Origin: Bacilli bacterium
Lineage (GTDB): Bacteria > Bacillota_I > Bacilli_A > RF39 > UBA660
Length of the DNA: 64,000 nt
Reading direction: 5' to 3'
Assembly: GCA_025992315.1 (NCBI GenBank)
Contig: DAJPHG010000001.1
Location: 881,633 to 945,632 of the forward strand
Both the position numbers and the translations under genes were made by a program. Shown in pieces: positions 6,754 to 42,504 of this stretch (the stretch's first letter is position 1; each line of letters opens with the position of its first letter). The notes beneath the pieces are model-generated. The model saw nothing but the letters and a program-made list of their open reading frames with translations. It was not told the origin of the DNA and ran no database searches.

Positions 6754-7394
6754 TTTTTATTAAAGTATCAGTTTCATTTTTAAAGAGTAAATATAGTCAT
6801 AAAGAAACAATTAATTTAATTGAAAATAGCAATTGTGATTATATTCATGTCGATGTAATGGATGGCAATTTCGTTGTAACTAAAACAGAGGACTTAATAA
6901 AATATTTAATCAATTCTAAAAAAAAGCTTGATGTTCATTTGATGGTAGAAGAGCCTTTAGATTATATAAATGATTATGCAAAATTAAATGTCGAATATAT
7001 AACTATTCATAGTGAAATAAACAAAGATTTATCTAATTTAATTGATTATATACATTCATTAAATATTAAATGTGGTTTAGCTATAAATCCTGAAACTGAC
7101 ATTAATAAAATAGAACCATATTTAAGTAAAATTGATCAAGTTTTAATTATGAGCGTTCATCCTGGTGCTGGTGGGCAAAAATTTATCGATTCATCTATAG
7201 ATAAGATTAATATTCTAGATAATTTAAGAAGTATTAATAATTACAAATATATTATTAATATTGATGGAGGAGTAAATAAAGAAACTATTAGTGCGATAAA
7301 GAAAACTAATATTGATATGGTTGTTTCTGGAAGTTTTATTACATTAAGTGATAATTATCAAACTCAAATAGATATATTAAAAAAGAGCTGTTAA
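6750..7394 (+). CDS. rpe: ribulose-phosphate 3-epimerase (divergent N-terminus)
   Basis: Contains HVDVMDGNFV, MSVHPGAGGQKF and DGGVN motifs. It starts at GTG, overlapping the rsgA stop. Confidence 0.85.
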   Translation: MIFIKVSVSFLKSKYSHKETINLIENSNCDYIHVDVMDGNFVVTKTEDLIKYLINSKKKLDVHLMVEEPLDYINDYAKLNVEYITIHSEINKDLSNLIDYIHSLNIKCGLAINPETDINKIEPYLSKIDQVLIMSVHPGAGGQKFIDSSIDKINILDNLRSINNYKYIINIDGGVNKETISAIKKTNIDMVVSGSFITLSDNYQTQIDILKKSC

Positions 7395-7406
7395 AAGCTC
7401 TTTTTT
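7381..7406 (+). terminator. rho-independent terminator of the rpe operon
   Basis: AAAGAGC-tgttaaaa-GCTCTTT stem-loop followed by a T-run. The rpe stop codon lies in the loop. Confidence 0.7.
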
Positions 7407-7428
7407 CTTTTAAAATAAAAAGTTGCAA

Positions 7429-7587
7429 TTATGCAACGTTTTTTGCTTCTCTAGCTGTAATTCTTACGCTCTTACCATTTATTGTTTTCTTTTGAAGATT
7501 TGGCTTTTGTTGAGTCTTTGATGCATTCATTGCATGAGATCTTTTATTACCACTTAAAGGCTTTTTCATAGTTGCTTTTTTTGCCAT
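7429..7587 (-). CDS. rpmB: 50S ribosomal protein L28 (short, 52 aa)
   Basis: The reverse-strand translation MAKKATMKKPLSGNKRSHAMNASKTQQKPNLQKK... matches the bL28 core (GNxRSHAMNASK..NLQK). It has a strong SD (AAAGGAGGAAG). The GTTGCAtaatTGCAAC hairpin plus T-run overlaps the stop. This ORF is missing from the ORF track because it is under 60 aa. Confidence 0.8.
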   Translation of the reverse strand: MAKKATMKKPLSGNKRSHAMNASKTQQKPNLQKKTINGKSVRITAREAKNVA

Positions 7588-7701
7588 TGTAACTTCCTCC
7601 TTTAATAATTAAACTACTTAAAGACTTTATCATAAATTTCTAAATAAGTCAATTTATAAGCAAATATTTTTATTATTTTTGTCAAAATAAATGTTGTTTA
7701 A

Positions 7702-7730
7702 TTGCTTTATTTATCGTTGTTTGATAAAAT
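7702..7730 (+). promoter_or_regulatory. sigma-A type promoter for the ireB-ruvX operon
   Basis: TTGCTT, then a 17-nt spacer containing TGa, then TAAAAT (extended -10), about 25 nt upstream of the ATG at 7755. Confidence 0.5.
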
Positions 7731-7754
7731 TATATAGTACAAGGGTGATTTAGT

Positions 7755-7964
7755 ATGAATAAAGAGAATGTTAGAGAAACTTTAAAAGAAATTTATGAGA
7801 GCTTAAAAAAAGGAAATTATGATCCATTAAGTCAAATAGTAGGATATTTAAACAGCGGAGATCCAGGATATGTATCTTCTTATGAAAATGCTCGAACTAA
7901 AATTATAGCTTTAGATCGTGCAGAAGTTATTCAAATAATGCTAGAGGAATTTTTAAATCAGTAA
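7755..7964 (+). CDS. UPF0297/IreB-family protein (YrzL-like)
   Basis: 69 aa with SQIVGYLNSGDPGYV, the family signature. It sits in the conserved position upstream of ruvX. Confidence 0.85.
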   Translation: MNKENVRETLKEIYESLKKGNYDPLSQIVGYLNSGDPGYVSSYENARTKIIALDRAEVIQIMLEEFLNQ

Positions 7965-8383
7965 TGCGTTGTTTAGGACTTGATTTAGGAACGAGAACTT
8001 TAGGTGTTGCAATAAGTGATAAGACTAATACTTTAGCTTCATTTTTAAAAGTAATTCGTTTTAATGATGATACTAAAAACCAAATGTATGAAGAATTGTG
8101 TCAAATAATTAAGGAATATAACATTACTCATGTTATATTAGGCTTACCTAAAAATATGGATAATTCATTAGGATTTGCTAGCCAAAGGAGTATTGATTTT
8201 AAAAATCATCTAACAAATTTAGTTGATGTTGAAATAATACTATTAGATGAGCGATTGACAACAGTTGAAGCAGAAAATATTTTATTAACTGCTGATATGA
8301 GTAGAAAAAAAAGAAAAAAAGTAATTGATGGTGTAGCTGCTACAATTATCTTAGAAACATATTTAAGAATGAAGGGAAATTAA
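7964..8383 (+). CDS. ruvX: Holliday-junction-resolvase-like nuclease RuvX/YqgF
   Basis: 139 aa with GLDLGTRTLGVAISD and LDERLTT motifs. Confidence 0.9.
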   Translation: MRCLGLDLGTRTLGVAISDKTNTLASFLKVIRFNDDTKNQMYEELCQIIKEYNITHVILGLPKNMDNSLGFASQRSIDFKNHLTNLVDVEIILLDERLTTVEAENILLTADMSRKKRKKVIDGVAATIILETYLRMKGN

Positions 8384-8384
8384 A

Positions 8385-8675
8385 ATGGAAGAAAAAAAGA
8401 ATACTTTTACAATTGTAAATGATGAAGGAAAAGAATTAGAATGTGATGTTTTATTTACTTTTGATAGTGATGAAACTAAAAAGAGTTATATAGTCTATAC
8501 TGATAATACAACTGATGAATCAGGAAGTACGAGAGTATATGCTAGTATTTATGATGCCACTGGTGCTGATAAAAGTCTAAAACCTATTGAAAGTGAGCAA
8601 GAATGGGATGTTATAGAAAATATATTGTCATCTATTCAAGAAAAAGTTGATAGTGAAGAGAGTCAAGATAATTAG
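8385..8675 (+). CDS. DUF1292 protein (YrzB-like)
   Basis: 96 aa and acidic. The ECDVLFTFDSDETKKSYIVYTD pattern and its synteny after ruvX support the call. Confidence 0.8.
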   Translation: MEEKKNTFTIVNDEGKELECDVLFTFDSDETKKSYIVYTDNTTDESGSTRVYASIYDATGADKSLKPIESEQEWDVIENILSSIQEKVDSEESQDN

Positions 8676-9740
8676 ATGAAAAAATTAATTATAGGTCTGG
8701 TTATTGCTCTATGCTCAATAGTTATTTTAGGGGTAAGTATTTATAATTACTGTTTAACTCCTGTAGACAAAAATGATAACAAAAATATAAGCTTTGTAGT
8801 TACTTCAGGCGAAGGAAAAAAAGAAATTATTAAAAATTTAAAGACAGCAAATTTGATTAAGAGTAAAACAGCTTCATATATGTATGTTATTCTTAATAAA
8901 GAAGTTGTATTTAAATCAGGCACCTTTACTTTAAAAAGAAGTATGAGTGTCAAAGAAGTATTTAATACTTTAGATGTTGGAAGAACAAAAGAGCAAGATG
9001 GTTTAACAATTACTTTTAAAGAAGGAAAAAGATTAACTGATTATATAACATTAGTAGAATCTAAAACTGATATAAAAGAAGAAGATTTTATTAATCTATT
9101 ACATGATAAAAATTATTTAAAGAGTTTAATTAATGAATATTGGTTTTTAACTGATGATATTTTAAATGATAATATTTATTATGCTTTAGAAGGTTATTTA
9201 TTTCCAGATACATATAATTTTGCTCTTGATGCAACAGCAAAAGATATAATCAAAACAATTTTAGATAATACTGAAGTAAAATTAAAATCTTTAAAAAAGG
9301 ATATGCAAAATAATGATTTAACAATTCATGAAATATTTACCTTGGCTTCTATTGTTGAATTAGAGGGAAAAGAAAACAGTGATAAAGCTGGTATTTCAAG
9401 AGTATTTTTAAACCGTATAGCTAATAATATGTCTTTAGGAAGCGATGTTACAACATATTATGCAGCAAATAAAACTTTCAAAGAAGATTTAACAACAGTT
9501 GAATTAAATGCTTGTAACAGTTATAATACTAGAGGTTCTTGTTTTAAAGGCTTACCTGTTGGTCCAGTTTCCAATCCGGGACTTAAATCTTTAGAAGCAG
9601 CCATTAATCCTGAAGATAATGATTATTTATTTTTTGTCTCTGATAAAAATGGAAAGATTTATTTTAGTAAAACCAATAGTGAACATGAAAAACAAGTTAG
9701 TGATTTGAAAAACGGTGGAAATTGGTTCGTTTATGAATAA
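8676..9740 (+). CDS. mltG: endolytic murein transglycosylase MltG (YceG family)
   Basis: An N-terminal TM helix is followed by LASIVELEG and YNTR..GLPVGPVSNPG motifs. Confidence 0.9.
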   Translation: MKKLIIGLVIALCSIVILGVSIYNYCLTPVDKNDNKNISFVVTSGEGKKEIIKNLKTANLIKSKTASYMYVILNKEVVFKSGTFTLKRSMSVKEVFNTLDVGRTKEQDGLTITFKEGKRLTDYITLVESKTDIKEEDFINLLHDKNYLKSLINEYWFLTDDILNDNIYYALEGYLFPDTYNFALDATAKDIIKTILDNTEVKLKSLKKDMQNNDLTIHEIFTLASIVELEGKENSDKAGISRVFLNRIANNMSLGSDVTTYYAANKTFKEDLTTVELNACNSYNTRGSCFKGLPVGPVSNPGLKSLEAAINPEDNDYLFFVSDKNGKIYFSKTNSEHEKQVSDLKNGGNWFVYE

Positions 9741-35839: not shown

Positions 35840-36139
35840 ATGGACTTAAAAAAGATACAAAAAGATGTTTGGAAGAATAAATTAAACAAAGGATTTAATA
35901 CGACAGATGTAAATAAAGAGTTTTGTTTATTATATGGTGAAGTTGCTGAAGCTTATGATGCTTGGAAAAAGAGAAAAGATGATTTGAATGAAGAATTAGC
36001 TGATGTAGCTATTTATCTAATGGGATTATCTGAAATGTTAGGGTATGACTTGGCAGATGAAATAGAGAAGAAAGTTTTTAAAAACGAAAAACGTGTATAT
36101 AAAAATATAGATGGTGTCAATGTAAGAATAAGTGATTAA
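35840..36139 (+). CDS. MazG-like nucleotide pyrophosphohydrolase (single-domain, 99 aa)
   Basis: Contains GEVAEAYDAW and EELADVAIYLMGLSEMLGYDL, the EExxE/D all-alpha NTP-PPase pattern. Confidence 0.7.
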   Translation: MDLKKIQKDVWKNKLNKGFNTTDVNKEFCLLYGEVAEAYDAWKKRKDDLNEELADVAIYLMGLSEMLGYDLADEIEKKVFKNEKRVYKNIDGVNVRISD

Positions 36140-36896: not shown

Positions 36897-37380
36897 ATGG
36901 ATAATAGTATTACATTACAAGATTTATTGAATAAATTAAGAGAATATAATCCTGAAGAAGTAGAAATTGTTAAAAGAGCTTACGAATACGCTGATACATT
37001 GCATAAGGGGCAAATGAGACAAAGTGGTGAGCCATAAATTTGTCATCCATTAAATGTTGCATATATTTTGGCAGAGATGCATGCAGATAGAGATACAATA
37101 TGTGCTGGACTACTTCATGATACTTTAGAAGATACAAACAGTACTAAAGAAGATATATATCACATGATTTTAATCAAAATATTGCTAATTTGGTAGATGA
37201 TGTAACAAAATTATCAAAAATGATTTTTCTTCTAAATAAGATTAGAATTATGCAAATACAAGAAAAATAATAACGGGAATAACTGAAGATTTAAGAATAA
37301 TTATAATTAAATTGGCTGATAGACTTCATAACATGAGAGCATTACAATTTAAATCGGAATTTAAGCAAAAAGAAAAATAA
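36897..37380 (+). pseudogene. RelA/SpoT-homolog N-terminal HD (hydrolase) domain remnant
   Basis: The translation has [44 protein letters not shown] with an in-frame TAA at 37035-37037 where Tyr is expected. Two frameshifts are then needed to read [17 protein letters not shown] and RIIIIKLADRLHNMRAL. The synthetase, TGS and ACT parts are absent. Confidence 0.8.
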
Positions 37381-37475
37381 AGGAATTCAATAAAAAATAG
37401 TACCACTGAATTATGAGTTTATAGGGAACTCATTGTAAAAAAAATATTAAACAAAGAAGGAGGTGATTAACTATT

Positions 37476-37532
37476 ATGAGAAAATTAATGAGAAAATTTA
37501 ATAAAAAATATGATATGTTATGTACTGCATAG
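37476..37532 (+). CDS. 18-aa ORF directly upstream of the YcaO operon (candidate substrate or leader peptide)
   Basis: Product is MRKLMRKFNKKYDMLCTA. A 10-nt SD, AAGGAGGTGA (37457-37466), lies 9 nt upstream of the ATG. It ends 57 nt before the 537-aa gene. Confidence 0.35.
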   Translation: MRKLMRKFNKKYDMLCTA

Positions 37533-37552
37533 TTATCATGTAAATTTATAGT

Positions 37553-37567
37553 CATAGTATTACTATG
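37553..37567. repeat. 15-nt perfect palindrome CATAGTAtTACTATG between the 18-aa ORF and the 537-aa gene
   Basis: Read directly from the sequence. It has 7-1-7 symmetry, so it is more plausibly a dimeric-regulator operator than an RNA hairpin. Confidence 0.5.
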
Positions 37568-37589
37568 GCTTTATAGGGAGACTTAATAA

Positions 37590-39203
37590 ATGGAAAATAT
37601 AAAGAGTAAAATAATACCAGAAAGTTTAAAAAGTAATATTGATGAAGTTATGGAGAGACAATTATTTAATGCTAACAGATATTACGCGGAGTCCAATCCA
37701 GAGATAAGTAGTTTGATGGAAAAAGAATTATATCAAAGTCCAATGGAATTTTTATATAGATTAAAAACAAGATGGAACTGGCATAATACTTATTATGAAT
37801 TATTATTAGAACCTGCTTTTGATAAAATTATTCGTGAGAATTTTACTGAATTATCGCCAGCAGAATTGAATGATATTATAAATATTTATTCAACTTCTTG
37901 TTTAGTCGACGAAGCGACACTTGTAATGTCAGGCTCAATTAAAAAATATTTGGATTACAATTGTAAAAATATTGGAGTTACTGATGAAAATATTTCGACA
38001 GAAAATTTAAATATAATGTTAATTACTCCGCCAATTGAAACTTTCTTTGCTCAATATCAAATTGACCATTTATATTACATATATTTGCTTAAAACAAATG
38101 ATACTGCTACTCAAAAGTTTAAGAATTATCTATTAAAAAAATATCATGCTAATGATGAAAAAATATTTGCTTCTAGATTTCAAAAGAAATTTAAGAATAA
38201 TTTATCAATGACTGAGAGAGAACTTTTAGAAGATATTAGACATTACAGAATACCTGAATATTACAAAACTCAACATTTTTACTTTACTCTTGAACATCCA
38301 GATAGGAAAGCAATTAGAGATATTATTATTTATGATAATTTAGACGAAAAATTAATTGCTTCTAATTTAATTGGAATTTCTGGATTCTTATTTAGAAGAA
38401 AGATTTTAGAATATCTTAATAATAGTGGAATTTTAAAAAATAATGGGTATATATATGAATTTAACAATGATATAATCATAAGTTCATTAGAAAGATTAAA
38501 AGAAGAAAGGAAAAATAATATGGATAAAGATGTAAGACCATATAAACAAAGGGGAGATACTTGTGCTATTGTTTGCATGATGATGGTATTGGAATACTAT
38601 AAAGTTATTCCAAAGGCGAATTGGTATGACGAAAGAAGATTATATAGGCTATACGGTTCAAAATATATGGACGGGACACCATTTTCAGCTTTAGCATTTT
38701 ATATGTCAAAAAATGGTTTGGAAACAACAATTTGTCATGAAAGTCAAAAATTATTTAAAAATGATCAAGGAGTTGTTGATCAAGATGATTTTAAATTTGC
38801 AATGGATGAATACAAAGACTATTTAAAATATGCAGAAAATAATGGTACAAAAGTTGTAAATGGTATGGATATAACTGTTGATGTTTTAAAACAAAAATTA
38901 CAAAATGGTGATTTAGTTATATTGGCAGGTGAGCTTCCAGGTGCTTATCATGCAATTTTACTTACAGGTTATGACCAAGATGGTTTCAAAGTATGTGATC
39001 CACTATATAAGACAAAACAAAACAGGACATTTGATGAAATAGAAAAATTTATGAATACAAGTATAGGTAAATGGTTTATAAGTGTTAATGATAAGACAAA
39101 AGAAAAAGAAAATTTAATTAATAATTTAGAAAAATTCAACGATGAAGCACAAATATTAATGACTAAACAAGAAAGCAGGAGCCTTAAGCATGTTAAAAAA
39201 TAA
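37590..39203 (+). CDS. two-domain protein: unassigned helical N-terminal half plus C-terminal C39-type papain-like cysteine peptidase domain
   Basis: 537 aa. Residues about 320-500 have Q-x4-C (YKQRGDTCAIVCMMMVLEYY) and His-x16-Asp-Pro (YHAILLTGYDQDGFKVCDP), as in Peptidase_C39 and C39-like domains. A GGGAGA RBS is present. Confidence 0.7.
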   Translation: MENIKSKIIPESLKSNIDEVMERQLFNANRYYAESNPEISSLMEKELYQSPMEFLYRLKTRWNWHNTYYELLLEPAFDKIIRENFTELSPAELNDIINIYSTSCLVDEATLVMSGSIKKYLDYNCKNIGVTDENISTENLNIMLITPPIETFFAQYQIDHLYYIYLLKTNDTATQKFKNYLLKKYHANDEKIFASRFQKKFKNNLSMTERELLEDIRHYRIPEYYKTQHFYFTLEHPDRKAIRDIIIYDNLDEKLIASNLIGISGFLFRRKILEYLNNSGILKNNGYIYEFNNDIIISSLERLKEERKNNMDKDVRPYKQRGDTCAIVCMMMVLEYYKVIPKANWYDERRLYRLYGSKYMDGTPFSALAFYMSKNGLETTICHESQKLFKNDQGVVDQDDFKFAMDEYKDYLKYAENNGTKVVNGMDITVDVLKQKLQNGDLVILAGELPGAYHAILLTGYDQDGFKVCDPLYKTKQNRTFDEIEKFMNTSIGKWFISVNDKTKEKENLINNLEKFNDEAQILMTKQESRSLKHVKK

Positions 39204-39525
39204 TTATTTGTTTTATAGTGATTACTTAAAAAAAAGAAATTTAAAAGCTAAGTCAATATTGATTGCCAAAACTAAATATTCATATTTAATTGGTCCGTTA
39301 ATAAATTCAAAGTTTGATGAAGATTCATTTTATAAAAGAATTAAATCTGATAGTATATATACCCTTAACATATATAAAAAAATGTTTAGAAAAAAACGTA
39401 ATAATTTGATTGAAAAATATATGAATGATTTGAAGAATAATCAAATAATTGAAATATATAAAAACGGAGAAATAGTTAAACATTCAATATTAAAAGTTCC
39501 GGGTGAAAATTATGGAAAAGAATAA
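39190..39525 (+). CDS. 111-aa protein translationally coupled on both sides, possible minimal YcaO partner
   Basis: An AGGAG SD lies 8 nt upstream. It overlaps both the upstream and downstream genes by 14 nt. SILIAKTKYSYLIGPLINSKFDEDSFYKRI faintly resembles the vGP...C..C..R segment of E1-like/TIGR03882 cyclodehydratase partners, but without the Cys residues. Confidence 0.5.
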   Translation: MLKNNYLFYSDYLKKRNLKAKSILIAKTKYSYLIGPLINSKFDEDSFYKRIKSDSIYTLNIYKKMFRKKRNNLIEKYMNDLKNNQIIEIYKNGEIVKHSILKVPGENYGKE

Positions 39526-40789
39526 GCTAATTTTAAATAGAAAAGAAATTATAAGTATTTTAGGAAAAGAGTATGAAGGATTAGCAGATATATTTAGTGA
39601 TAAGTTTGGAATAGTAAATGCTATGTTAGAACGACATGAACTAGATAAGTATAATCTTTTCATGTATCAATGTTTAAGTGCAAATACTGTTGATTTATTT
39701 GGTTTAAGTAGAGAAGTTTCTAGTGGTGGTTTAGGTGTAAATGAAAATAAAAAAATTGCCATGACTAGTTGTTTAGCAGAAGCATTAGAACGTTATTGTA
39801 TGTCTTATATTCCCAAAAAAGAAATTATAAAGAGTGCGAAAATAAATTTAAGAAAAGAAAATACTTTTGATAACTTTTTTACATATAGTGAAGAACAATA
39901 TGATAAATTAGATTTGTTTTTAAATCCAAATAAAGAAAAAATAGAGTGGACAAAAATTTATAATATTGATAGTAGAAAAAAATTTAAGTACTGGCCTGCT
40001 AGTTTGATATATTTACCATATGATTTAAATAAAACAGTGGCAGAAACAACTTCAACAGGTATGGCCGCTGGATTTACATTAGATGAATGCATACAAAGTG
40101 GATTGTTAGAATTGATAGAGAGAGATGCATTGATGGTTAATTTTATGCAACGCCTGAATCCACCTGAAATTAATTTGGAAACTTTAGATGGTGAAAATTT
40201 AAAATTGATAAAGAAAATACAAAAAGAATATGATATAAAAATTTACAAATTGTATTCTGATATTAAAGTTCCTATTTATTTATCTATTATTTATAAAGAG
40301 GAAAAGAAGCATATACATTATGGTATAGGTGCATGTGCTAGTATAAATTCTGATTATGCCATTAATAAATCATTAAAAGAATGTTTATTCACTTATTTCT
40401 ATTCTTTAAATATAATGGATGCTCGACAAGGTGATCCTAAAAAAATAAAAACGTTATATGAACACTTTTTATATTATCAAGGCGATAATTTTAAAAAATT
40501 ATTATTTAATAGTAAGGTAATTAATTATAAAAAAGAAGTTGTATCATTTAATGACTTATTAAAAAATTTAAAATCCCAAAATATAGACGTATATTATAAA
40601 GAATTAACTACTGATGACATTAAGAAAACTGGTATTAAGGTTGTTAAGGTTATTGCTCCAAGTTTAATTGATTTAAATAAAAGTCATATATACCCAAGAC
40701 TAGGAGCAGAACGATTTTTCCTTGTACCAGAGAAATTAAAATTAAAACATAATAAAAAGTTAACGGAGATGCCTCATCCGTTTCCATAG
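39512..40789 (+). CDS. YcaO-family ATP-dependent amide-activating enzyme (cyclodehydratase type)
   Basis: Contains SGGLGVNENKKIAMTSCLAEALERYC, TSTGMAAGFTLDECIQSGLLELIERDA and the extreme C-terminal MPHPFP (PxPxP). ATG at 39512 follows GGGTGA, with GTG at 39503 as an alternative. Confidence 0.9.
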   Translation: MEKNKLILNRKEIISILGKEYEGLADIFSDKFGIVNAMLERHELDKYNLFMYQCLSANTVDLFGLSREVSSGGLGVNENKKIAMTSCLAEALERYCMSYIPKKEIIKSAKINLRKENTFDNFFTYSEEQYDKLDLFLNPNKEKIEWTKIYNIDSRKKFKYWPASLIYLPYDLNKTVAETTSTGMAAGFTLDECIQSGLLELIERDALMVNFMQRLNPPEINLETLDGENLKLIKKIQKEYDIKIYKLYSDIKVPIYLSIIYKEEKKHIHYGIGACASINSDYAINKSLKECLFTYFYSLNIMDARQGDPKKIKTLYEHFLYYQGDNFKKLLFNSKVINYKKEVVSFNDLLKNLKSQNIDVYYKELTTDDIKKTGIKVVKVIAPSLIDLNKSHIYPRLGAERFFLVPEKLKLKHNKKLTEMPHPFP

Positions 40790-40799
40790 GGGGATAATT

Positions 40800-41690
40800 A
40801 TGAGTGAAAGAGATAAATTAGATATTTTATTGTACAATACATACATCAATATGAGTGATGAAAATCGTTGTACAGATAGATTAGAATTAATTGCGGAACA
40901 TTACAAAGTAAATGTTGATTATTTATATAACAGATATTTATGGTTGGTGAATATGGGAATTGATCCTAATTATTATCATTTGGATGAAAATCATGCATTG
41001 ATATATAGAATATTTGACGAATATAACAAAATGCTTAACGAGAACAATATTGAGTATTATTATACTAGTGGAATCCTTGCATATTTGTTGGTTGATAGAG
41101 ACTTAGAGAGATATCATCATGATTTAGATATTTTTATAAATATGGAACATTTGGAAAAGTTGGAACAAATTTGTTGTGATTATAATTTTTTGTTTGAACG
41201 AAAAATAGGTGAACGCGGTGATGGAACAAAAAGAGTGATGTTAAAAATGTACTATAAAGATATTATTGATATTCCGATAACTGTTTTTATGTATGTTAAA
41301 GAAAAAGATGGTTCCATTACTCAAAAAGATTATTTTGTTAATGAAAATAATAGAAAATTAGTTGAATATATTCATAATTCTCCATTAATTAGTAAATTAA
41401 GTTTCTCTGAAATTCCTAAAAATCATAATGGCATTAAATACTATTCCATAACGCCAGAAGCACTATTTTTATGTAAAACCGAAAATAGGCCAAAAGATGT
41501 TTACGATTGTACCGTTTTTAGTAATATTGTAGATAAAAATAAGCTTGAAGAATTAAGTAAAGCATTTAAATATAATTTACCTAATAATATTGTTGAAGCA
41601 AACAATGATGAATTTTCAAATTATATTTTTAAAAATAATGAACCAGAGAAAATAAAAGTTAGTAAGAGGGTATTGATAAAACATGATTGA
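40800..41690 (+). CDS. Pol-beta-fold nucleotidyltransferase (Lnu/ANT(2'')-like) with C-terminal extension
   Basis: 296 aa. YYTSGILAYLLVDRDLERYHHDLDIFI fits the G-x(n)-R-x-H-x-D-h-D-h NTase active-site pattern of small-molecule nucleotidyltransferases. A GGGGGA RBS is present. Confidence 0.6.
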   Translation: MSERDKLDILLYNTYINMSDENRCTDRLELIAEHYKVNVDYLYNRYLWLVNMGIDPNYYHLDENHALIYRIFDEYNKMLNENNIEYYYTSGILAYLLVDRDLERYHHDLDIFINMEHLEKLEQICCDYNFLFERKIGERGDGTKRVMLKMYYKDIIDIPITVFMYVKEKDGSITQKDYFVNENNRKLVEYIHNSPLISKLSFSEIPKNHNGIKYYSITPEALFLCKTENRPKDVYDCTVFSNIVDKNKLEELSKAFKYNLPNNIVEANNDEFSNYIFKNNEPEKIKVSKRVLIKHD

Positions 41691-42321
41691 TTATAGTTTA
41701 TATTTATGTACGAATAGTGAAATAAATATTGATTATCCACTTGAATATTGTGTAGAGCAAGCAATTTTAGGTGGCGTTACAATAGTCCAAATTAGAGAAA
41801 AAGGGAAAAATTATAATGAGTTCTTTCAGATTGCATCTAGAATAAAAAAAGTAACTGATAAATATAATATACCATTAATTATAAACGATAACCTTGAGGT
41901 TGCAAAAAATATCAAAGCTGATGGAATCCATATTGGACAAAATGATATATCTTGTTTGGAAGCAAGAAAAATTCTAGGCCCTAAAAAAATAATAGGTGTA
42001 ACTGTAACAAATCTTAGTGAAGCAAAAAAGGCAATTGAAGATGGTGCATCATATTTGTGAGTTGGTGCTATATATAAATCAACAACTAAAAAGGATGCAT
42101 TGGTAGTAGGTGTTGATAAGTTAAGAAAAATAGCAGATTATTCTTCAATACCAGTTATAGTAATAGGTGGTATTAACAAAAATACGATTCCTATATTAGA
42201 GGGAATTAAAATAGATGGTTATGCTATGATTAGACCGATATTAGCACAGGAAAATATTATTGATTCTACTAAAAAATTAAAAAGATTAATATATAATAAT
42301 AAAAAATCGTTAGATGTTTAA
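41683..42321 (+). pseudogene. thiE: thiamine-phosphate synthase / TenI-fold gene with one in-frame TGA
   Basis: The 212-codon frame is colinear with ThiE (LYLCT, IVQIREK, IINDNLEVA, GIHIGQND, IPVIVIGGI). TGA at 42058-42060 replaces the first Gly of the conserved GADY-I/L-G-VG motif (GASYL*VGAIY). The ATGATTGA overlap couples it to the NTase gene. Confidence 0.8.
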
Positions 42322-42324
42322 GAT

Positions 42325-42504
42325 CTAATGATTTTTTATTATTTCATCAACAGAACAATTAAATTTTTTGGCTAATTTATAAATATAAACTGTTGGTATT
42401 AATATTATTCCTAATTCATATTGAGTATAAGCGGATACTGAAATTTTTAAAATTTTCGCAATCTCTTTTTGAGTTAGATTTACTTTTTTTCTTAATAAAT
42501 GCAA
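42325..42504 (-). pseudogene. XRE-family helix-turn-helix remnant (59 codons)
   Basis: The reverse-strand translation is (L)HLLRKKVNLTQKEIAKILKISVSAYTQYELGIILIPTVYIYKLAKKFNCSVDEIIKNH*. Only a TTG start is available, there is no SD, and the first helix is short or missing. Confidence 0.45.

Follow-up and report, generated by a model that had tools for sequence, protein, structure and literature searches.

The window, that is, the whole stretch of 64,000 nucleotides (nt) of a Bacilli contig analysed here, contains a compact operon around a YcaO protein of 425 amino acids (aa). The operon is intact, shows kinship to YcaO peptide pathways and is apparently undescribed as a gene set. With a probability of about 0.6 we consider it to be a small pathway of the azoline-forming YcaO type, as in the thiazole/oxazole-modified microcin (TOMM) and linear azol(in)e-containing peptide (LAP) systems, for a peptide that is synthesized ribosomally and modified after translation (RiPP); its substrate would be an 18-residue peptide, MRKLMRKFNKKYDMLCTA. 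Judged by gene conservation, the core of the module is this peptide, a 537-aa protein with a helical and a C39-like domain, a 111-aa protein and the YcaO. An earlier note on this DNA had proposed an undescribed YcaO-dependent modification module. Neither a named RiPP class matching the gene set nor any description of the gene set or the peptide motif was found in the literature searched, and the proposal has now become specific, with a conserved candidate substrate.

The small open reading frames (ORFs) of 34 related genome loci were clustered. Apart from the 111-aa protein, one family recurred, an ORF of 18 codons located immediately upstream of the gene for the 537-aa protein. Of the 34 GTDB loci, 28 contained it and six were on contigs that begin too late to include it; it was also seen in metagenome loci. 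When the motif D-[LMIVF]-[LMIVF]-C-T-x-stop was sought in all six frames of 837 kb of sequence, 56 matches were obtained, 55 of which were on the module strand, and those inspected in locus maps adjoined the module. The matches represented 40 distinct DNA versions ending with D-[LM]-[LMI]-C-T-[AGSV]. The region marked off by the earlier note began at 37476, which is the ATG of this 18-codon gene; the gene itself was absent from the text of that note.

Residues D13, C16 and T17 of the peptide were invariant, and the codon changes at these positions were synonymous only (GAT or GAC for Asp13, TGT or TGC for Cys16, ACT, ACA, ACC or ACG for Thr17). Residue 18 was mostly Ala, encoded by all four GCN codons, and otherwise a small residue, while the first three residues never varied. 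Since the key positions varied only synonymously, selection acts on the translated product, and this codon pattern shows the peptide to be under selection at the amino acid level. A Shine-Dalgarno-like motif was located at most 25 nt upstream in 46 of the 56 matches. A hairpin, often a full terminator, was found at the same place after the peptide stop in 38 distinct loci, with unrelated sequences and a mean z of -3.7. The stem-loop of the window is probably an attenuator or a partial terminator; a hairpin behind the precursor gene is a common arrangement in RiPP clusters. On these features, the 18-residue peptide is most likely the substrate of the YcaO.

The assignment of the 425-aa protein to the YcaO family, already made in the earlier note, was borne out by a hidden Markov model search, in which PF02624 matched residues 82-388 (E 3.6e-43, 148.6 bits, cut-off 25.7). 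The best NCBIfam family by far was TIGR03604 (SagD family; 200.5 bits, cut-off 219.25), and the YcaOs of distant modules reached 179-194 bits with the same model. The thioamidation model TIGR03266 gave 79 bits against a cut-off of 365. In a profile search the closest solved structures were MusD, TruD and LynD (E 2e-21 to 6e-18). The ATP/Mg motifs ExxER and ExxERD, which aligned with those of MusD, were invariant in 12 orthologs (E90/E93/R94 and E200/E203/R204/D205), and T182 and G183 were also invariant. The C-terminal end PHPFP was invariant in all orthologs and satisfies the PxPxP motif that marks azoline-forming YcaOs. By its best family score, the YcaO would be an azoline former.

Within about 10 kb on either side, no ThiF-like protein, nitroreductase/SagB, TfuA or transporter was annotated by Pfam labels, and the nearest ATP-binding cassette (ABC) ATPase was part of the suf cluster, all as described before. 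A SagB-type (nitroreductase-fold) flavin mononucleotide (FMN) dehydrogenase was also not found in the module proteins themselves.

The gene of the 111-aa protein was always located directly upstream of the YcaO gene and overlapped it. Its family comprised 63 representative clusters among 1.84 billion proteins and was always free-standing, without domain fusions. Of 22 family members, 5 matched TIGR03882 (TOMM precursor leader peptide-binding protein) below threshold, the best with E 4.6e-4 and 20.4 bits (cut-off 36.9), and one weakly matched TIGR03603 (SagC). The top Foldseek matches of the AlphaFold model (predicted local distance difference test, pLDDT, 82) were the E1-like proteins PaaA, Atg7 and ThiF; they were weak, and none was significant (E 0.1 or worse). 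A sequence-profile search of the PDB with the family found nothing. Distant members carry CxxC...PGCxx[CH], and the CxxC together with the C-terminal PGCxx[C/H] is likely a zinc site. In the gut Bacilli clade these putative zinc-site residues were all replaced and G35, P36, F42 and R50, described as fold-defining, were kept.

From the weak matches to TIGR03882 and TIGR03603 and the E1-like top structural matches, we suppose with low to moderate confidence that the 111-aa protein is a truncated, minimal relic of the canonical TOMM leader-binding partner. The earlier statement that none of the known YcaO partners is present was thus correct for SagB, TfuA and an exporter but has to be qualified for the leader-binding partner, which the 111-aa family weakly resembles. 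The 111-aa protein was also considered as a substrate and ruled out; the version of the window's clade contains no Cys and behaves as a conserved folded partner.

The C39-type domain that had been placed on the C-terminal part of the 537-aa protein was matched by PF13529 (C39-like) at residues 314-471 (E 3.5e-10, 41 bits, cut-off 24); PF03412 (C39) reached 13.2 bits against a cut-off of 22. Residues Q320, C325, H454 and D470 were invariant in 32 homologs. In the AlphaFold2 model (pLDDT 92.4) the papain-like domain resembled the peptidase domains of PCAT1 and ComA (Foldseek, TMt 0.65-0.73, E 0.04 or worse). The helical N-terminal domain was always fused to the C39-like domain and had no significant Foldseek match in the PDB. 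Residues 1-313 had no match in Pfam or NCBIfam, and these databases indicated no transporter domain in the protein. Single-sequence searches of the PDB with the 537-aa protein and with the 296-aa protein encoded behind the YcaO found nothing. Models of Pfam, NCBIfam or PADLOC were lacking for the helical domain as well as for the 111-aa protein and the 296-aa protein, the latter resembling nucleotidyltransferases (NTases), and the source annotations gave only "C39 family peptidase" or "hypothetical protein".

Homologs of the 537-aa protein, the 111-aa protein and YcaO occurred together elsewhere. About 30 GTDB species, uncultured gut Bacilli of the "Mycoplasma sp. CAG:472" type, had the core set, and so did many contigs from metagenomes, including environmental ones resembling the candidate phyla radiation (CPR). 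The GTDB loci contained 34 YcaO genes, 31 genes for the small partner, 29 for the 537-aa protein, 26 for the 296-aa protein and 18 thiE genes. The four core proteins were full length in all species examined, down to about 45% identity. The exact YcaO protein was present in 456 blocks of a public assembly collection, and many gut-metagenome contigs, up to about 1 Mb long, encode it. The nearest genomes in GTDB were those of uncultured Bacilli, one of them "Mycoplasma sp. CAG:472" (97% identity), and gut samples of humans (Hadza, Nepal), rabbits and ruminants yielded relatives. The window accordingly comes from a small-genome bacterium of the gut.

Distant modules were detected by scanning metagenomes with the YcaO alignment. 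Their YcaOs were 45-55% identical to that of the window, and their DNA had 37-45% G+C. The peptide is retained in them (MKFIKKFDKKYDLLCTA and MKRFNRKTDLLCTA are examples), and so are the small protein, the YcaO and the protein with the helical and C39-like domains. Their hosts look CPR-like, judging by neighbouring genes and one metagenome-assembled genome labelled Woesebacteria. The gene order in gut Bacilli was peptide-C39-small-YcaO, while it was C39-peptide-small-YcaO in five loci (L050, L054, L056, L058 and L066) and peptide-small-YcaO-kinase in L037; L052 was a short contig with only peptide-small-YcaO. The position of the peptide gene therefore shifted together with the module across the order variants. 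An alpha/beta hydrolase gene of the S9/S33 type followed directly after YcaO in L050, L054 and L068. In L050 the genes at 7251-7913 and 7905-8822 (- strand) encode an alpha/beta hydrolase and, adjoining it, an MprF-like lysyl-phosphatidylglycerol synthase C-domain, which could be related to tolerance of cationic peptides.

The 296-aa protein of the window had no Pfam or NCBIfam match, and a PDB sequence-profile search with its family found nothing. The fold assigned to it earlier, that of a Pol-beta NTase, agrees with an invariant motif (S-G-x16-D108-x-D110, SG...R.HHD.D, with G91, R104, H106, H107, D108 and D110 invariant), but PF14907 and PF10706 were matched below threshold and in some orthologs only (5 of 14, best E 0.0015, and 2 of 14, respectively). 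ANT(2'') was also weakly matched by orthologs. In 26 of 34 GTDB loci the gene lay beside the module, and from its distribution it is an accessory gene, encoding a putative tailoring enzyme. PsmN, an uncharacterised ANT(2'')-like NTase, tailors a phosphorylated lasso peptide (PMC6993621).

Other enzymes were encoded at or near this position in several lineages. In L031 and L032 genes of an NTase, a MoaA/viperin-like radical S-adenosylmethionine (SAM) enzyme and a Nudix hydrolase lie between the C39-like and small-protein genes (L031, 5223-7523), and their presence inside the module hints at nucleotide chemistry on the peptide. A radical SAM gene after the NTase homolog was also seen in other species (L040, 9336-11740; L044; L061). 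An APH-type kinase gene directly followed YcaO in L037 (9244-10113) and L041 (1548-2341); it was translationally coupled, took the place of the NTase gene and in L041 overlapped the YcaO stop by 4 nt. The best NCBIfam match of this kinase, far below threshold, was thiamine kinase.

The last gene of the operon had been described as a gene of the ThiE/TenI fold. The fold was correct, as PF02581 (TMP-TENI) matched both pieces of the gene, but the gene is not intact in the window; a single change of GGA to TGA at 42058-42060 splits it, while relatives are otherwise identical over this stretch. The TGA could be a strain-specific pseudogene mutation or a sequence error. Intact orthologs of 208-225 aa were found in 18 loci, and the gene was absent from 16 of 34 GTDB loci. 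The orthologs are genuine thiE genes and not TenI by score: that of L008 gave 199.6 bits with TIGR00693 (cut-off 145.1), and the score with the TenI model NF005819 was only 91 bits (cut-off 251). Since the orthologs pass the curated thiE cut-off, thiE probably serves ordinary thiamine salvage on a shared transcript, and its absence from many modules and its pseudogene state in the window probably place it outside the core. The peptide was also considered as a thiazole source for ThiE and rejected by atom-mapping reasoning only; a Cys-derived thiazoline would be substituted at C2/C4 and would not carry the 4-methyl-5-hydroxyethyl pattern.

The five ORFs on the + strand and the coupling between them, with overlaps and one 10-nt gap, corresponded exactly to the earlier description when compared with the ORF listing of the window (Table 1).

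Table 1. Positions of the operon features and of the upstream rel pseudogene in the window
Feature	Position	Strand	Basis or remark
rel (RelA/SpoT) pseudogene, neighbour without shown membership in the module	36897..37374	+	tblastn
Shine-Dalgarno site GAAGGAGGTGA of the peptide gene	37456..37466	+	read from sequence
Candidate precursor peptide gene, 18 codons, product MRKLMRKFNKKYDMLCTA	37476..37532	+	small-ORF clustering
Stem-loop AGUCAUAGU-AUU-ACUAUGGCU, after the peptide gene and before the 537-aa gene	37550..37570	+	z = -1.75 in the window
537-aa ORF	37590-39203	+	ORF listing
All-helical N-terminal domain of the 537-aa protein, residues 1-310	37590..38519	+	AlphaFold2 model
C39-like Cys peptidase domain (papain fold) of the 537-aa protein	38529..39203	+	PF13529
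111-aa partner protein	39190..39525	+	14-nt overlap with the stop of the 537-aa ORF
YcaO, 425 aa, probable azoline-forming (SagD-like) type	39512..40789	+	ATG overlaps the stop of the 111-aa ORF by 14 nt
Putative Pol-beta-fold nucleotidyltransferase, 296 aa	40800..41690	+	10-nt gap after YcaO
thiE (thiamine phosphate synthase), pseudogene in the window	41683..42321	+	start overlaps the 296-aa ORF by 8 nt, ATGATTGA

For the substrate, the modified residue, the roles of the partners and the fate of the product, the following scheme is proposed on the basis of gene content, co-occurrence, selection on the peptide and family assignments. The peptide MRKLMRKFNKKYDMLCTA would be translated from its strong ribosome-binding site, and the hairpin behind its stop would keep the peptide mRNA in excess over the enzyme mRNA. 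The 111-aa protein, as a cut-down SagC or Ocin-ThiF-like partner, would bind the basic N-terminal part of the peptide and present it to the YcaO. With ATP, the YcaO would activate the Leu15-Cys16 amide and Cys16 would cyclize to a thiazoline; a methyloxazoline may in addition arise from Thr17 and the carbonyl of Cys16. The rings would stay azolines because no dehydrogenase is encoded in the cluster. The 537-aa protein would cleave the peptide by means of its C39-like Cys protease domain. In many lineages the NTase-like enzyme may then modify a hydroxyl group, most plausibly that of Thr17, and in other lineages the NTase may be replaced or joined by an APH-type kinase or by the pair of a MoaA/viperin-like radical SAM enzyme and a Nudix hydrolase.

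Several observations weigh against this reading. Cys and Thr each occur only once in the peptide, and at a precursor length of 14-18 residues there is little room for a separate leader. It lacks Gly, hence a Gly-Gly site of the kind normally cut by C39 peptidases, and its core is nearly invariant across lineages, which is unusual for antibiotic-type RiPPs. The SagD-family score of the YcaO stays below the cut-off. The 111-aa protein of the window has no Pfam or NCBIfam match, and its link to TOMM partners comes from sub-threshold matches in distant relatives and the weak Foldseek result. No exporter gene was found within the 10 kb on either side and no immunity gene nearby. Finally, the assignment of the 296-aa protein as an NTase is weak, and some modules lack the NTase or ThiE.

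The same peptide and the same enzymes might serve a different YcaO chemistry, i.e., formation of a backbone thioamide or an amidine ring or ATP-dependent cleavage of a peptide bond. Amide activation is a step common to all YcaO reactions, and the sub-threshold SagD-family score, the reduction of the E1-like partner to about 110 aa, the missing dehydrogenase and a protease able to expose a new N-terminus for amidine formation would all be compatible with this. Against thioamide chemistry, neither TfuA nor any other sulfur-delivery gene was found nearby, and the TIGR03266 score was 79 bits compared with 200 bits for SagD; in addition, the invariant Cys16 and Thr17 fit cyclodehydration, and the closest solved relatives are heterocyclases. 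We therefore regard another chemistry as unlikely. Still less probable is a role of the 18-codon ORF as a cis-regulatory leader or ribosome-arrest peptide, with a protein encoded elsewhere, for example a ribosomal protein, as the YcaO substrate. The ORF is very short, takes the 5'-terminal position of the operon in gut-clade loci, is followed by a hairpin and has rel as its conserved upstream neighbour, and protein-modifying YcaOs such as E. coli YcaO, which acts on uL16, exist (PMC13063428). In the CPR-like loci, however, the peptide gene is located between the C39-like and small-protein genes and not at the operon 5' end. Its conserved part ends with Cys-Thr, the classic YcaO nucleophiles, and the partner protein resembles a leader-peptide binder. 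The YcaO of the window is also basic (pI 8.9), whereas YcaOs acting on uL16 are acidic (PMC13063428).

The genes from the NTase onward (NTase and ThiE, or radical SAM and Nudix) may not belong to the pathway at all but form a separate nucleotide or thiamine-salvage unit that shares the transcript, a view to which we give serious weight, though somewhat less than even. It agrees with the passing of the curated cut-off by thiE orthologs, with the absence of thiE from 16 of 34 GTDB loci and its pseudogene state here, and with the lack of the NTase in a CAG:776-like subclade and in the CPR-like modules. It agrees less well with the location of NTase, radical SAM and Nudix genes inside the module in L031 and L032, with the 4-nt overlap of the L041 kinase gene with YcaO and with the negative search for a thiamine pyrophosphate (TPP) riboswitch. 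This concerns only the distal genes, and the azoline-forming pathway with its four-part core is the reading preferred here.

As to its product, a conserved intracellular small molecule or tagged peptide that is not an antibiotic, perhaps linked to the stringent response, is conceivable but doubtful. The idea comes from the D-L-L-C-T-A end, which is invariant across YcaOs only 45% identical, from the lack of exporter and immunity genes and from neighbouring genes that recur (Rel, HD, Nudix, NTase, kinase and MoaA-like). Such a product could be an azoline compound that binds metal, a molecule resembling a cofactor, or an azoline peptide bearing a nucleotide or phosphate. Bacteria so far uncultured would then make a metabolite of a new kind from a peptide, and the pathway would be a YcaO-based counterpart of the pyrroloquinoline quinone (PQQ) and mycofactocin pathways in bacteria with very small genomes, namely gut Bacilli and CPR-like environmental lineages.

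YcaOs make important peptide antibiotics and modify proteins, although many of their families are still without a known substrate. The analysis supplies a candidate for the substrate, a minimal set of components (peptide, 111-aa partner, YcaO and peptidase) and predictions for mass spectrometry, and thus a concrete lead to a new natural product. If the tiny partner suffices for YcaO activation, it would set a lower size limit of the E1-like partner, which would be useful for engineering.

Among known systems, TOMM/LAP clusters (SagBCD, McbBCD, BalhCD) share with the module a SagD-like YcaO with ATP motifs and C-terminal PxPxP, an adjacent precursor gene, a separate partner gene directly upstream with faint leader-binding similarity, and Cys and Thr conserved in the core. 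Unlike in these clusters, the partner has only about 110 aa and no E1-like Rossmann body, and an FMN dehydrogenase, a CaaX-type protease and an ABC exporter are missing. The precursor of 14-18 aa (40 or more in TOMM/LAP clusters), with its single Cys-Thr, is nearly invariant across lineages. The cyanobactin heterocyclases PatD, TruD, LynD and MusD include the closest solved structures and heterocyclize Cys/Thr after a bulky hydrophobic residue, comparable to Leu-Cys-Thr in the peptide. However, they are proteins of about 780 aa with the recognition element and E1-like domains fused to the YcaO, and their long, multi-cassette precursors are accompanied by subtilisin-like proteases and macrocyclases.

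The C39 double-glycine leader peptidases PCAT1 and ComA have a papain-like fold, the same catalytic Gln/Cys/His/Asp set and a location beside a peptide precursor in common with the 537-aa protein. The domain here is of the PF13529 and not the PF03412 type, is fused to a helical domain of 310 aa and not to an ABC transporter, and its presumed peptide has no Gly-Gly. PsmN-type NTases of pseudomycoidin lasso clusters resemble the 296-aa protein by the faint ANT(2'')/PF14907 similarity and their position beside RiPP enzymes, and in some clusters a kinase stands in the equivalent place; they belong to another RiPP class, and PsmN adds hexoses to a phosphorylated C-terminal Ser. The PQQ (PqqA) and mycofactocin (MftA) pathways are similar in working logic only: a very short precursor whose C-terminal residues do not vary between phyla, a small partner protein that binds the peptide, a single core enzyme for the modification and a peptidase, with an exporter lacking. 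They use radical SAM chemistry instead of YcaO and lack the protein families specific to this module, and to call the product here a cofactor by this analogy would be pure conjecture.

The surroundings of the operon did not agree with the earlier picture of almost complete decay. ORFs of at least 90 aa on the + strand covered 88.5% of the window, and the only decayed genes in the neighbourhood were thiE and a frameshifted rel pseudogene, of which residues 1-159 of 480 are left, as tblastn with the full-length Rel of L007 (480 aa) showed. Intactness amid decay can therefore not serve as an argument for selection here. The window DNA has about 25% G+C, with UGA read as stop. PADLOC gave no match, so a known defence system was not supported. 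Rfam gave no matches in the whole 64-kb window, which includes the absence of any riboswitch, and tRNA genes were not found in it either. A promoter consensus scan gave 56 sites compared with 57.7 expected, which is uninformative in AT-rich DNA.

In most Bacilli-type loci an intact 480-aa Rel (HD, RelA_SpoT and TGS domains; L007, 4447-5889, for example) was encoded directly upstream of the peptide gene. Its position was kept although other flanking genes varied among these loci, and from this arrangement a tie between the module and the stringent response is possible. A 219-aa HD_4 protein was encoded near the module in three CPR-like loci (e.g., L054, 8151-8810, - strand). Upstream of the rel remnant of the window a 99-aa MazG-like pyrophosphohydrolase gene (35840-36139) was located, and just past thiE a gene for a 59-aa XRE-type helix-turn-helix protein (42325-42504, - strand); neither was conserved beside the module in other species. 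Over the window as a whole (1-64000) nearly all genes were on the + strand, and the GC skew was positive throughout.

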